IMG/VR virus record: IMGVR_UViG_3300044712_000833
Coordinates: 32,001-96,000 of that record
Origin: a virus
Direction: 5' to 3' (one strand)
Length of the DNA stretch: 64,000 nucleotides
Both the position numbers and the translations under genes were made by a program. Every line of letters begins with the position of its first letter. Within the stretch, counting starts at the first letter, position 1. Under the pieces are notes generated by a model. It worked only from the letters and a program-made list of their open reading frames with translations, was not told the DNA's origin and made no database searches. Shown piece after piece: positions 2,187 to 46,119 of the stretch.

Positions 2187-3098
2187 ATGTTAGAAAAAAT
2201 AAAAGAGTTTGGTTTTAATTTCTTAATGGTTGACCAAGAAAATTCTTCACAGATTCATATAGAAAACAAGGAAGGCTATAGAACAAGAACCACGATAGGT
2301 AAAATATTATCTGGTAAAAATCAATTTAAATCAATAGCTCATCCAAGCAACCCATATAGTTTATATAACATAAATCTTTTTATAAAGAAAAATAAAATGA
2401 ATTTTTATCTTTTAGAGAATAATACATATACTTCAGCAACAGATAAGAATTTAAAATGTTATTGTTATGAATGTCAAGATATATTTCTAGCAAGATGGCA
2501 AAGTATAAGTACATTTCATGGATGTGGTCTATGTAATGGAAAACAAGTGGGAGTTAAAAACTTAAAAACCCAAAGACCAGATTTAATAAAAGAATGGTCA
2601 AACAACAATGCAAATCTCCCCGAATCATACTCCGAATTTTCTCACTCCGAAGTCTTATGGAGGTGTTCAGTTTGTGGAAATGAGTGGGCTGATAAAATAT
2701 CCAATAGAACAAATTTAGATAGAGGGTGTAAAAAGTGTTCTATGAGCAAGGGAGAAAAAAGAATATTTCAATTCATTAAGTCTTTTAATTTAAAATTTTC
2801 AAGCGAATATTCTGAAATTCCTTCTGTTAAAAACGGAAAGTTAAGATTTGACTTTTATTTATCGGATTATAATCTTTTCATAGAATATCATGGTATTCAA
2901 CATTACGAACCTATAGATTTTGCTGGAAAAGGTAAAGAGTGGGCTAAAAATCAATTTAAAGAAAACCAAAGAAGAGATAAAATTAAAGAAAAATATTGTT
3001 ATCACAATGATATAAATTTGTTAATAATTCCTTATTGGGATTACGATAACATTGAAAAAATATTAGAGGAAACTCTTCAAGAATTAGAAAGGAGTTAA
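2187..3098 (+). CDS. Homing-type endonuclease (zinc-ribbon repeats plus C-terminal PD-(D/E)XK/Vsr-like domain)
   Basis: CxxC pairs, WRCSVCGNEW zinc ribbon, LRFDFY...IEYHGIQHY...RDKIK nuclease motif. Confidence 0.75.
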   Translation: MLEKIKEFGFNFLMVDQENSSQIHIENKEGYRTRTTIGKILSGKNQFKSIAHPSNPYSLYNINLFIKKNKMNFYLLENNTYTSATDKNLKCYCYECQDIFLARWQSISTFHGCGLCNGKQVGVKNLKTQRPDLIKEWSNNNANLPESYSEFSHSEVLWRCSVCGNEWADKISNRTNLDRGCKKCSMSKGEKRIFQFIKSFNLKFSSEYSEIPSVKNGKLRFDFYLSDYNLFIEYHGIQHYEPIDFAGKGKEWAKNQFKENQRRDKIKEKYCYHNDINLLIIPYWDYDNIEKILEETLQELERS

Positions 3099-30853: not shown

Positions 30854-33800
30854 TTATTCTTTTTCCCAATCATCACAGGTAAATTCTGCCATTAGGATAC
30901 CCTCGTCTTTATGAGCAATTGGAAAATCGTGTTTTTTACAAATATACCCTTTCAAATCATAAATAGAATGTTGACAAAAAAGACATATTTTAGCGTCCTC
31001 TACCCTCTTAAAAGACGGAACTTTCTTTCCTAATTCCATTGTCTGAAAAGGTCGAATTGGATAAGCATCTTTTATTTCCATGTTATTATCCTTTCGGTAA
31101 CATTTCCCATATGAATTTTGTGAAATCCATATCAACGATTGAAATTCCTTCTTGAATATCCCATAAGGAAACTGGAGAATTTAAATCTAATTTTCCTTCT
31201 ATAACAATAGTTCTTCCATATTCAGGGCTTTCATAAATAATTCCTAAAGCCACATCTCCGTTTACTATAACGTATTTTACTTTATTCATATTATCCGTTA
31301 TAAAATCGGAATTTTATTTATATAAATTTGTGGTATTTGCACTTGGGACAGTAATTATAATAAGATGTTACTTTTATATAATTGCCATTCCAATCAATGA
31401 GATTCAATCCCATAAGTTTTCCGAGAACCATGTTTTTGCTTTCACATATGGGACATAATTCATTATCTAATAATATAATATATTCCACGTTTTGATTCAT
31501 GTTTATTCAATTATCTCAACAAGACTGTCATCGTCAATTAACTTTCTCATAGCAATCCATGTAAACTGAGGATATTCCATTTCCACAGGATATTGATACA
31601 TAACAACAACACAATTATTACAATCAATCTCTCCCCAATTATTTTCCACATCTTGTCGTCCAACCACTATTCCACTAAAAATATCTTTCTTGTGGTCTTT
31701 TATTTCTTCTCCTTCATCTTTAAAGAACTTTAAGTCTTCTTCAAAATACCAATATACTCTTTTTCCAGAAGTTAAAGAACAGTGTATTTTATCATAATTG
31801 TTTAAATTTCTAGGAATATTTTCATTGTCTAAATCTAATTGAAGATGATATAAATATGTTTTCCTCATTATAAATTAAAACTCCTCTGGAAAAATTTTCT
31901 TATAATATTCTTGAAGAAGATATTCCTCTGTTAAATAGTGAGTTCCACAAATTGAACATTCCATGCAACCGCATTCGTCACAGATATATAATTTATTATT
32001 TATAATCGTAGCTACATGCTGACAAGATTTATCAAATACAATTGATTTTTTGGGATATACGAATGTCATGATTTATTCCTAATTCCGCAAGCAATCTCAA
32101 CGAGTTGAATATAATAGTCGTCCCAGTTTCCACTTGGGAGTTTATCATCAAGACAAACATTCTCCCTAAGAAAACTTCTAATTTTCATACCCCAAGTAAA
32201 GTGCGATGAAGCCCACCAATTTTCATGATCTTGTTTGTGCAGTCTGGCGACATCTTCTTTTACACCCTCTGTAAACAGGGTTTTTAAATACGAAACAGCC
32301 TTTTCAACTATCCAATCTGGACATTCTTTTAAGTATTCATCCATTGTTTTGTACTCTTCAATCATTTTTACCAATCCTTCTTTTTTCAACGTTTATTGCA
32401 TGCTGAAGCCTTTTTCTGATTATTTCTTGTGTTTCCCAAGCACCAACTCTTTTATAATATTCTTCCAAAGTATAATATCTATCATTTCCTGTAGGCAGTC
32501 TTGGTTTTTCAGCATCCAGTTCCATACAGAAACCTTCCAGCCAAGATAATAGGGTGTCTGGAAAAGGGTTTAGATACTCTCGTTTAAATTTATTTTCATC
32601 CATATTAAAATCCTTTCGGAATATGTAGAGGAGGAGGTATTCTTGCGCTTTCTTCTATGAACTTACAAGGATGATATTTCATCAATATCTTTTCTAATTC
32701 TCTTCCTGATTTATAAATTTCTTCTTGATGATAAGACAATGTGTTGTTTTCTTTATAGTAATTGTAGTTTTCAGATGAAGCTATAAAATCCCAATTCCAA
32801 TTCCATATAGAAATAAGCGCAATCAATCCAGATGGCACATGAGGGAAATGGGACTCTGGATCACCAAACCCCACCCCACACTCGCACCACATCCCAGTTG
32901 CCGCGAAGTCTGGATATAGGTGTATTGTCTTATTTTTATGATTACAATTAATTCTTTTCATTAAATATAACACCTTTCATGACAAACAGAGCATTCATGT
33001 AAAATCTTATTTTCAATAAATCTTTCTGGAACAACTTTTTCTAATTTATCTTCAGACTTACAATTTGGACATATGAATTTTGTTCTATCGACATTAGGCA
33101 TTGGTGAATTATCAAACTGAATACCATCTATTTGAGAAAGGGGTAAGTTGTCAAAATCTTTTAATGTTCTTTCTTTTTTATTTTTCATAAAACATTCCTT
33201 TCAATGAAAGAGTAATTTTATTATTCCTTATTATCCAAAATTCTTTGAATTCTTCTACCTTCTTCGATTCCAGCTTTATATACGTCTTCTGGAAATCCAT
33301 GTGGAATTCCATAGGCAATTTTAAAATATGTTTCTCTACAAAACCACACAACCCAATTCAATATTAGAGGATAACAAACGGCAACTGGAATATCATATCT
33401 CCAATAGCATATACCATACCCCAGAGGGGGTTTACAACTTTGCTCAACGTCAATTCTTAACAGTCCTTTTTTATTATAACATTTGTTCATTTTATATCAC
33501 TTCCGATAAAATAAGCGTTTTGTTTATGTTCCGTGACTCGAACCTGTTTCTAATTCTATTAGCTCTGAAATAGTTACTAATTTTTCGTTAGCTAAATTGT
33601 CGTAACCCCACTCTATATCCTCAATCAGCTTTTCACACATTACCAAATATATTTCCTCACCGAACCTTTTTCCGTGAAAATATGTAACTATTCTTTTTTT
33701 ATCTAACGACTCCCATAGTATCTGCATAAATGTCCTCTATAAAATGTGTCTTTTATTGATCTTTTGATAAATTCTTAATTTTGATAACAATATAATCACG

Positions 33801-45222: not shown

Positions 45223-45720
45223 TTATTTTGTTAGTACTTCAACAATTCTATTTACTTCAATTGTAAAATTTTCATCATCCTCATATAAAACGGTATAATC
45301 ATTTAAATTTTCATTTGAATGATATTCTCGTTTTGAAAGATGAATTTTAAAGACCCCGTATTCTTCTTGTAAAAAGGGGACTAAACTCTTAGAAACCCCA
45401 TGCACAATAAGAACGAATTTATCAAACGTTTTATTCTCATGAATCTTTACTTCAGAGTCATCATCATTAAATGCTATAATTTTCTCTGCTAAATAACTCT
45501 TCTCAAAATCAAATAGTTCATTATATGAAACCAATTGATCTGATATAAACTTTTCTACTTCTTCTGTCTTATCGCCCTTCCAATAAAAATTCGATTTTAA
45601 ATTGTTTCTAAGTTTATTCTTCGGATTTATATTCCAAATCCATGCCATAGATTCAACTATATCGATGAACTTGTTTTTAGTTTGTGGGTCGCCTGACAGG
45701 AGAATTATTGCTTTTTTCAT
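45223..45720 (-). CDS. Hypothetical protein (possibly degenerate P-loop kinase fold)
   Basis: AAGGAG RBS; IILLSG start without intact Walker A. Confidence 0.5.
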   Translation of the reverse strand: MKKAIILLSGDPQTKNKFIDIVESMAWIWNINPKNKLRNNLKSNFYWKGDKTEEVEKFISDQLVSYNELFDFEKSYLAEKIIAFNDDDSEVKIHENKTFDKFVLIVHGVSKSLVPFLQEEYGVFKIHLSKREYHSNENLNDYTVLYEDDENFTIEVNRIVEVLTK

Positions 45721-45809
45721 TGTTTTCTCCTTTTTTATTTTATTTTTTACTGCGATTTTATCATCTAAAAATCACTTCATTATTATAACCTCCAATTTAA
45801 TTTTATAGG

Positions 45810-45886
45810 CGCGGGAGACAGGATTTGAACCCGTATGTGTCCAGTTACCCTTTCAACATGTTAGAAGCATGAGGGGATACACCCGC
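45810..45886 (-). tRNA. Non-canonical tRNA-Arg(UCU)-like gene lacking a normal D-arm
   Basis: Acceptor GCGGGTG/CTCCCGC, anticodon arm CATG-CTTCTAA-CATG, T-arm ACGGG-TTCAAAT-CCTGT; only 8 nt between acceptor and anticodon stems. Confidence 0.65.
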
Positions 45887-45999
45887 AAAATGAGAGTTTA
45901 GGATTTCTCACAACCAGCACATAATTATCCTACGCAAAGTTCGCCAATCTTGCGCTTCGATGAATGTGAAGTTCCGCTTCAACGGCATCCATCTATTTG

Positions 46000-46072
46000 A
46001 GCGAACAACGGGGAACGATCCCGCAACATCTTGATTGGAAATCAAGTACTCTACCAATTGAGTTATGTTCGC
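46000..46072 (-). tRNA. tRNA-Gly(UCC)
   Basis: Cloverleaf GCGAACA/TGTTCGC, CTTGA-TTTCCAA-TCAAG; atypical T-loop ATCGTTC; U73. Confidence 0.88.
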
Positions 46073-46090
46073 ATCTCAATCAATAATATA

Positions 46091-46119
46091 ATTCTACCAC
46101 AATTTTTTATTCTTGTCAA
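46091..46119 (-). promoter_or_regulatory. Sigma70-type promoter for tRNA-Gly/Arg-like unit
   Basis: TTGACA-17-TAGAAT with TGTGG. Confidence 0.75.

Follow-up and report, generated by a model that had tools for sequence, protein, structure and literature searches.

The locus examined here raises a simple question, namely whether a gene of tRNA length which has no room for a D hairpin can still encode a working tRNA. The window (the whole stretch analyzed, 64,000 nucleotides (nt), positions 32,001 to 96,000 of IMG/VR virus record IMGVR_UViG_3300044712_000833) carries a 77-nt tRNA-Arg(UCU)-like gene on its minus strand at 45886-45810. An earlier note on this DNA, made from the sequence alone, had described it as a rearranged tRNA. 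In our reading the element is likely to be the gene for a functional tRNA-Arg(UCU) which would not fold as a cloverleaf and which belongs to a conserved phage family. Judged from its aligned sequences, this family is a new structural variant of tRNA with a rewired core and a new strand order.

Layout of the element and covariation in its family

Read on the minus strand the gene is GCGGGUG-UAU-CCC-C-UCAUG-CUUCUAA-CAUGU-UGAAA-GGG-UAACUGGA-CACAU-ACGGG-UUCAAAU-CCUGU-CUCCCGC-G, followed by CCU (Table 1). The acceptor stem (7 base pairs (bp)), the T arm (5 bp with a TPsiC-type loop) and the anticodon arm (a 5-bp stem closed by seven loop nucleotides that include U33 and a purine 37) are those of a standard tRNA. 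The acceptor and anticodon stems are separated by only 7 nt, and no D hairpin is present from nt 9 to nt 26. The segments transcribed in the earlier note agree letter for letter with this strand, including the stretch UAUCCCCU between GCGGGUG (nt 1-7) and CAUG and the 22 nt with AGGG and AACUGGA which follow the anticodon arm. Its length of 77 nt also stands, but its span of 45808-45886 took in two C residues past the discriminator (45808-45809), and the gene ends at 45810.

Table 1. Parts of the rewired tRNA gene and neighboring features in the window
Feature	Coordinates	Strand	Remarks
Acceptor stem 5' strand GCGGGUG, nt 1-7	45880..45886	-	pairs with 45811-45817 at 6/7; U6.U67 unpaired
Connector U8-A9-U10	45877..45879	-	U8 and A9 invariant, 116/116 aligned members
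H2 5' strand CCC (C11-C13), replaces D-stem nt 23-25	45874..45876	-	pairs with GGG 45848-45850
Single C, position-26-like, between H2 and anticodon stem	45873	-	one unpaired column in every member
Anticodon arm UCAUG/CAUGU, loop CUUCUAA	45856..45872	-	outer pair U.U; anticodon UCU 45865-45863
3'-side internal loop UGAAA	45851..45855	-	family range 3-12 nt; motif subfamily-specific
H2 3' strand GGG (G37-G39), replaces D-stem nt 10-12	45848..45850	-	directly before invariant U-A in every member
D-loop-like segment UAACUGGA (U13, A14, A15, C, U, G18, G19, A20)	45840..45847	-	
Linker CACAU, last base U48-like	45835..45839	-	last base covaries with R15
T arm ACGGG-UUCAAAU-CCUGU	45818..45834	-	canonical T loop
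Acceptor 3' strand CUCCCGC and discriminator G73, then CCU	45810..45817	-	CCA not encoded
112-nt spacer, tRNA-Gly to rewired tRNA	45887..45998	-	three predicted hairpins, z = -0.81
Canonical tRNA-Gly(UCC)	45999..46072	-	ARAGORN; Rfam 64.2 bits
Promoter-like site TTGACA-17-TAGAAT with TG extension	46091..46119	-	11/12 consensus matches (match to consensus only); 19 nt upstream of tRNA-Gly

Relatives were collected by two pattern scans of viral contigs, each giving at least 120 loci. Pattern 1 specified a CUUCUAA loop and, 22-30 nt further on, a T loop, and among the matches listed for it (121 with the window) 66 were without room for a D arm; nearly all of these 66 shared one fixed layout, with exactly 12 nt from the acceptor stem to the anticodon loop. 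Pattern 2, which was blind to the anticodon and specified a D-loop-like motif and a T loop, added the same layout with other anticodon loops. A covariance model (R1) built from an alignment of 30 members (A1) gave 116 matches over the fetched loci, 109 of them distinct, at 47.8-92.6 bits in 99 loci and the window, and its scores were bimodal, with the canonical tRNAs of the same loci at 37 bits or less. A second model (R2), made from 29 relatives with the window copy left out, gave the window copy 74.3 bits (E 1e-18 in a search of all 64 kb), a mid-range value for the family, and the canonical tRNAs of the window no more than 23.1 bits. A near-exact pattern of the window copy found no locus in viral contigs, and when the surrounding 1.5 kb was compared with phage records by BLAST, canonical tRNAs were the only matches. 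The AAA_24 ATPase gene near the element, used as a query, led to 12 distant loci at 39-46% identity, none of which held a family member by ARAGORN, Rfam or R1.

The layout common to the family runs from the acceptor stem through UAU, a 3-nt strand, one nucleotide of any kind and the anticodon arm to a loop of 3-12 nt, the complementary 3-nt strand, U-A14-R15..G18-G19-N20..Y48 and the T arm. The window copy follows it throughout, with UAU, CCC pairing with the GGG that precedes UAA, an A15-U48 pair and all invariant core bases intact. In the alignment of the 109 distinct members (A6) 95.8% of cells were paired, compared with 61.9% on shuffling, and none of 500 shuffles reached as high; controls with slid partners gave 39-44%. 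The earlier note would have taken a lack of homologues with compensatory changes as a sign of decay; the 109 homologues show double changes at 20 of 21 pairs. Unaided, RNAalifold recovered from A1 the acceptor stem, a 3-bp helix enclosing the anticodon arm (H2) and the T arm. Covariation was seen at 7/7 pairs of the acceptor helix (98.7% of cells paired) and at 5/5 pairs of the anticodon stem, whose outer pair is non-standard in 35/109 rows, and the T stem was 99.4% paired.

The new helix deserves separate treatment. H2 was placed by ungapped anchors, one strand being positions -9 to -7 relative to the anticodon loop and the other the three nucleotides that immediately precede U-A, and H2, the stems and position 48 were all unconstrained by the search patterns. 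Overall 89% of its cells were paired, with double changes at 3/3 pairs and pair types including CG, GC, UA and AU. Within the 79 non-seed rows its three pairs were standard in 79, 78 and 44 rows, with four to five pair types each. A parse independent of the alignment found all three pairs in 59 of 94 members, where by our own arithmetic about 5% would be expected for random triplets. The earlier note had also placed a helix around the anticodon arm, and the family-wide covariation bears this out, but its register of CCCU with AGGG does not hold; the family register is C11-C13 with G37-G39, 3 bp, and the run of four C residues in the window copy permits both registers. The D-loop-like segment is likewise located 3' of the anticodon arm, as had been claimed, with U13, A14, G18 and G19 invariant there in 116/116 members (only pattern 2 demanded the GG). 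At the Levitt pair 15-48, every one of the 109 rows has either A-U (102) or G-C (7). Mutual information for a 26-44-like contact gave a subfamily signal only.

Standard tools pass over the gene, as the earlier note had anticipated. ARAGORN left it uncalled in six of six option sets, intron and mitochondrial modes included, and on its own genome the Rfam tRNA model RF00005 gave 24.8 bits (E 4.2e-4), short of the gathering cut-off of 29 bits. Its single-sequence folding energy was ordinary (z = -0.04, with 94 of 200 shuffles folding at least as well). Across the family, too, ARAGORN misses 110 of 116 members and makes six overlapping calls with wrong boundaries or types, and Rfam 15 has no family for the split-D-arm layout. 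The sub-threshold Rfam score and the ordinary fold would fit a decayed canonical tRNA-Arg pseudogene which had lost its D arm and looks rearranged by chance. This explanation is already refuted by the family covariation and the R2 score, and its probability is close to nil: 109 distinct homologues share the layout, every helix covaries, including the new one and the Levitt pair, and members are present in phages of Proteobacteria and Actinobacteria.

Other known departures from the cloverleaf were considered and rejected. An intron-bearing, split or permuted gene does not fit 77 nt with normal ends in which no removable segment restores a D hairpin, and the intron mode of ARAGORN was empty. 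A tRNA-Sec or allo-tRNA was set aside on a 7/5 acceptor/T branch, no conserved pairing before the T arm and an Rfam tRNA-Sec score of 20.2 bits against a cut-off of 47, and a class II variable arm on finding no conserved hairpin. A mitochondrial-type armless tRNA was rejected since G18G19, A14 and R15 (A or G) are kept, invariant and relocated.

The canonical tRNA fold brings nt 9 into contact with the 12-23 pair, sets nt 21 beside 8-14 and 15-48, and stacks pair 10-25 on nt 26 and the anticodon stem. Because of this geometry the joins that are changed in the family (9 to 23, 43/44 to 10, and 21 to 48) would link existing neighbors, and the L shape could in principle be kept. In this layout the place of the D hairpin is taken by a 23-25 strand which directly follows U8-A9-U10 and runs into the anticodon stem, and the 10-12 strand and the D-loop (U13-A14-R15..G18-G19-A20) are found after the anticodon arm. 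Both D strands pair around that arm, giving a three-way junction and not a four-way cloverleaf, with the parts in the order 8-9, 23-25, 26, 27-43, loop, 10-12, 13-21, ..48, T arm. H2 would be expected to stack on the anticodon stem in the manner of a D stem, and the elbow would be rebuilt by U8-A14, R15-Y48 and G18G19 with the T loop, with the L shape kept. The earlier note had read the topology as one which rebuilds the L-shape core, and this structural reading gains support from the H2 covariation, the invariant U8, A14 and G18G19, and the covariation of 15 with 48.

Anticodons, charging and competing explanations

The anticodons over the 109 rows correspond to Arg in 104 and Ile in 5. The Arg rows carry UCU (69 distinct rows), ACG (18), CCU (9), UCG (7) and CCG (1), and nt 20 is A in all of them. 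In the five Ile rows, with GAU or UAU, nt 20 is U in four and A in one, and A73 is present in 5/5; the lone A20 row came through the pattern that demanded GGA, and the four Ile rows found by the model alone are all U20. Thus the architecture does recur in phages with anticodons other than UCU, the search for which had been suggested earlier. The nearest cultured-phage matches of the window copy are Ile members, those of Streptomyces phage Coruscant (GAU) and Rhodococcus phage Peregrin (UAU), which have U20, A73 and the window's UAUCCCC..UGAAAGGGUA core. According to the accessible part of PMC9976931, the bacterial Arg determinants are A20 (the main one for arginyl-tRNA synthetase (ArgRS)), C35, U/G36 and A/G73, and U20 and A73 are among those for Ile. 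The window copy, as read from its sequence, fits the Arg set with A20 (45840), C35 (45864), U36 (45863) and G73 (45810).

On these features we infer that the element would be processed, charged and used in decoding. The host ArgRS would charge it via A20, C35, U36 and G73, and the charged tRNA would read AGA, and AGG by wobble. The heavy use of AGA remarked on by the earlier note was confirmed by counting: AGA makes up 675 of the 1140 Arg codons (59%) in 113 long open reading frames (ORFs) of the 129.7-kb genome, in which ARAGORN found only tRNAs for Asn, Thr, Gly, Lys, Met and Trp and no tRNA-Arg. Canonical tRNA-Arg with the same anticodon stood beside a rewired one in 1 of 99 loci, and a canonical tRNA of any kind lay within 300 nt of 77/116 members; in both counts the contigs are partial.

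A real family could nevertheless consist of tRNA mimics, serving as decoys for a nuclease or toxin, as regulators or as primers, which are not charged and stay off the ribosome. The non-canonical core, its rejection by tRNA finders and Rfam, and the other tRNA-like oddities of the window, such as a tRNA with a 40-nt insert, are all consistent with mimicry. However, the anticodon loop is fully canonical, 7 nt long with U33 and A37 in 116/116 members, and 62 of 94 parsed members carry an encoded CCA. All five Arg anticodons were found, which suits decoding better than mimicry of one target, and the rarity of a neighboring canonical tRNA-Arg with the same anticodon and the AGA usage of a phage that has no other tRNA-Arg point the same way. 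Furthermore, nt 20 and the discriminator change along with the anticodon between Arg and Ile members, a joint switch which a charged tRNA predicts and a decoy does not. We regard mimicry as improbable.

Charging with an amino acid other than Arg was also considered, for example by a seryl-tRNA synthetase which takes the long stretch 3' of the anticodon arm for a variable arm, with AGA recoded. The member in a related record, Alishewanella phage Slicko01, is labelled tRNA-Ser, and allo-tRNAs with AGA/AGG anticodons are described in the open part of PMC5389517. That label probably reflects segment length only. The segment after the anticodon arm has no conserved hairpin, the acceptor/T branch is 7/5 and not 8/4 or 9/3, and A20, C35 and U/G36 are kept, and we give this explanation very little credence indeed.

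Several observations weigh against a functional tRNA. The four sequencing runs examined consist of Logan contigs, from which no transcripts, ends or levels can be read. When conserved Arg sites were compared by tblastn of seven window proteins against 12 loci (L001-L012), only two AGA cells were aligned. The third H2 pair is often C.A, G.G or G.A and is non-standard in 35/109 rows, so that H2 can shrink to 2 bp, and the 30 members behind R1 were picked for a fully paired H2, which biases that model. The T-loop motif was demanded by both patterns and GGA and A15 by pattern 2; A20 in the non-UCU Arg members from pattern 2 is therefore partly by construction. Finally, in the window copy itself U faces U at 6-67 and at 27-43, and CCA is not part of the gene.

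The last of these points would also fit a functional family in which only the window copy is decaying. The mismatches and the 3' tail of CCU speak for decay, as does a contig of run X7 from a related phage in which conserved flanks enclose 79 other letters in the place of the tRNA, indicating that the tRNA slot turns over. Against this, both U.U mismatches recur among the 30 seed sequences (6-67 in 4/30, 27-43 in 5/30), CCA is missing in 32 of 94 parsed members, the leave-one-out score lies in mid family range, the invariant core bases are undamaged, and the gene is the only candidate reader of the commonest Arg codon of its genome. Decay of this copy is thus quite unlikely, and a functional tRNA-Arg(UCU) remains the reading we prefer.

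Genome setting and distribution

The source record is a 129.7-kb IMG/VR phage of approximately 32% G+C. The rewired gene lies 112 nt downstream of tRNA-Gly(UCC) on the same strand, co-oriented as the earlier note had stated, and tRNA-Lys, tRNA-Met and tRNA-Trp are located further upstream in the cluster. Both flanks of the cluster consist of DNA-replication genes (DnaB-like helicase, primase-polymerase, SSB and AAA_24 ATPase). The rewired tRNA would probably be co-transcribed with tRNA-Gly from the promoter-like site at 46119-46091 and then excised from the precursor, of which the spacer is probably also a part. No terminator-like site was found in the spacer or following the promoter-like site, and the spacer matched no Rfam family. 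In contigs of runs X3 and X7 the spacer is kept with 5-6 differences, and the neighboring ORFs differ more; related phages from other samples thus retain both the spacer and the flanks. A 16-mer from the spacer matched 77 viral loci, none of which aligned to the window at E 1e-5. A contig of the RNA-library run X21 matches 45552-45837 and then diverges, which is not evidence of transcription. The downstream ORF at 45223-45720 was considered as an HNH nuclease and rejected, with no family match at E 0.001 and weak unrelated ones at E 5. HNH endonuclease genes do adjoin the rewired tRNA in Salmonella phage SSBI34 (L248:1597-1956) and Stenotrophomonas phage SOVA965 (L370:455-991), and HNH was also seen under some BLAST rows.

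A different unusual tRNA is found elsewhere in the window. The minus-strand segment 49156-49268 matches the Rfam tRNA model end to end at 58.1 bits over 113 nt and is uncalled by ARAGORN. It has canonical acceptor, D and T arms, an AAAGU/ACUUU anticodon stem and a loop of approximately 47 nt with a second anticodon-loop-like hairpin (CUUAU..AA); the insert is below group I intron size. A further tRNA with a large insert is found in a distant relative, where a plus-strand match to Rfam tRNA of 36.5 bits extends across 150 nt (L004:4749-4898) and lies upstream of the AAA_24 homologue.

Members of the rewired family are present in Felix O1-like, phi92-like, rV5-like and actinobacterial phages and in bacterial tRNA arrays. 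Cultured phages outside the model seed gave R1 scores of 84.3 bits (Agrobacterium phage Atu_ph04), 82.3 bits (Stenotrophomonas SOVA965), 79.9 bits (Limnohabitans DC31), 73.6 bits (Salmonella SSBI34, Vequintavirinae), 70.4 bits (Escherichia PATM, Justusliebigvirus, phi92-like), 68.6 bits (Escherichia A4, Asteriusvirus), 68.2 bits (Alishewanella Slicko01) and 66.7 bits (Escherichia REP8, Felixounavirus). BLAST with the SSBI34 copy matched 246 phage records; the best 60 of these are mostly unannotated at that site, and a few are labelled tRNA-OTHER or tRNA-Undet.

A narrower pattern occurred at 116 places in 185,579 prokaryote species genomes. R1 applied to 100 of these loci found members of at least 49 bits in 41, with Arg anticodons throughout. 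The seven bacterial loci inspected are dense arrays of 6-25 tRNA genes and include three Bradyrhizobium isolates and several Blastocatellia metagenome-assembled genomes. In bacterial arrays with rewired members, ARAGORN also calls tRNA-Arg genes of 79-81 nt with the anticodon at 37-39 and not 33-36 (L288:1795-1873; L303:2814-2893 and 2983-3063), which suggests further odd Arg tRNA geometries.

Variants were noted in and around the family as well. In one 55-bit member (L097:5533-5614, plus strand) the anticodon loop is 8 nt in length, UGUUCUAA, and the 3' internal loop is long; this copy may be defective, or it may serve as a reader of quadruplets or frameshifts. Four related contigs (L023, L083, L109 and L124) have a second exact copy of the acceptor 5' strand 7-mer approximately 28 nt upstream of the rewired tRNA, which could be the remnant of a duplication or insertion event. 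The UCU cloverleaf tRNAs with a 19-26-nt long variable arm in nine loci (L025, L114, L030, L116, L125, L094, L123, L016 and L021) are a separate unusual group of viral AGA readers.

Implications and comparison with known tRNA forms

Outside animal mitochondria the cloverleaf is, to our knowledge, regarded as an almost universal tRNA structure. If the proposed fold is correct, the family would be a widespread three-way-junction tRNA which keeps its tertiary core by another strand order, and the L shape would tolerate topological rewiring of the D arm. We suggest only tentatively, and consider it rather doubtful, that the split D arm is a second natural solution to the L shape on bacterial ribosomes, kept as a counter-defence and as a portable Arg/Ile scaffold. 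As a counter-defence, an idea already raised in the earlier note, it would preserve the features read by ArgRS and isoleucyl-tRNA synthetase, EF-Tu and the ribosome and might escape anticodon nucleases, tRNA-modifying toxins and other host enzymes which require a D arm of canonical geometry. As a portable scaffold, it would be switched between Arg and Ile identity via the anticodon, nt 20 and nt 73.

The carriers include well-known laboratory phages, namely the Felix O1-like, phi92-like and rV5-like phages and Asteriusvirus, and the family would expose a class of tRNA gene which ARAGORN, tRNAscan-type finders and Rfam overlook. It would also fill gaps in phage tRNA inventories, for instance the AGA reader of Felix O1, for which an Arg[AGA] tRNA was expected and none listed in the accessible text of the genome paper (PMC3185647). 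For tRNA engineers it would offer a natural alternative scaffold, and the Arg/Ile switch with A20/U20 would amount to a natural experiment on identity rules. No description of the split-D-arm layout was found in the open literature, including the accessible parts of PMC7609411, PMC5389517, PMC8421152, PMC11137056, PMC9976931 and PMC3185647; supplements and subscription journals lie outside this scope.

The nearest relatives are canonical tRNA-Arg genes (RF00005). The rewired family shares with them the 7-bp acceptor stem, the 5-bp T stem with a GTTCRANNC-type loop, the 5-bp anticodon stem and 7-nt loop, and U33, A37, UCU, U8, A14, G18G19, A20, R15-Y48 and G/A73. Examples of the canonical class I form are E. 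coli argU and phage T4 tRNA-Arg(UCU). Like phage tRNA-Arg genes, the window copy sits in a phage tRNA cluster and suits the AGA usage of its genome. Unlike canonical tRNA-Arg, its D-stem strands flank the anticodon arm and the D-loop follows it, in what would be a three-way junction.

Genes in which tRNA segments stand in a non-standard order are known from red algae and archaea, where circularly permuted and split tRNA genes are processed to a mature tRNA of normal order. The rewired gene shares the non-standard order but has normal acceptor ends, and its mature RNA would still be rearranged; a gene of 77 nt is too short to hold an intron or a leader-trailer junction. Metazoan mitochondrial D-armless tRNAs, for example mt-tRNA-Ser(AGY/N), also have a short acceptor-anticodon connector and a three-armed secondary structure, as far as the open text of PMC4013460 and PMC7609411 describes them. 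In those tRNAs, however, the D-loop elements are lost and flexibility takes their place, whereas the rewired family keeps A14, R15, G18G19 and N20 in relocated form together with 15-48 covariation, has a full-size T arm and occurs in bacterial phages. The allo-tRNAs and tRNA-Sec-like tRNAs with 8/4 or 9/3 acceptor/T branches (Mukai et al., PMC5389517, in its accessible part) are likewise non-canonical tRNAs of bacteria, phages and metagenomes which standard annotation misses, some of them with AGA/AGG anticodons. They retain the D hairpin and have a long variable-arm hairpin, in contrast to the 7/5 branch, the lack of a variable hairpin and the split D arm of the rewired family.

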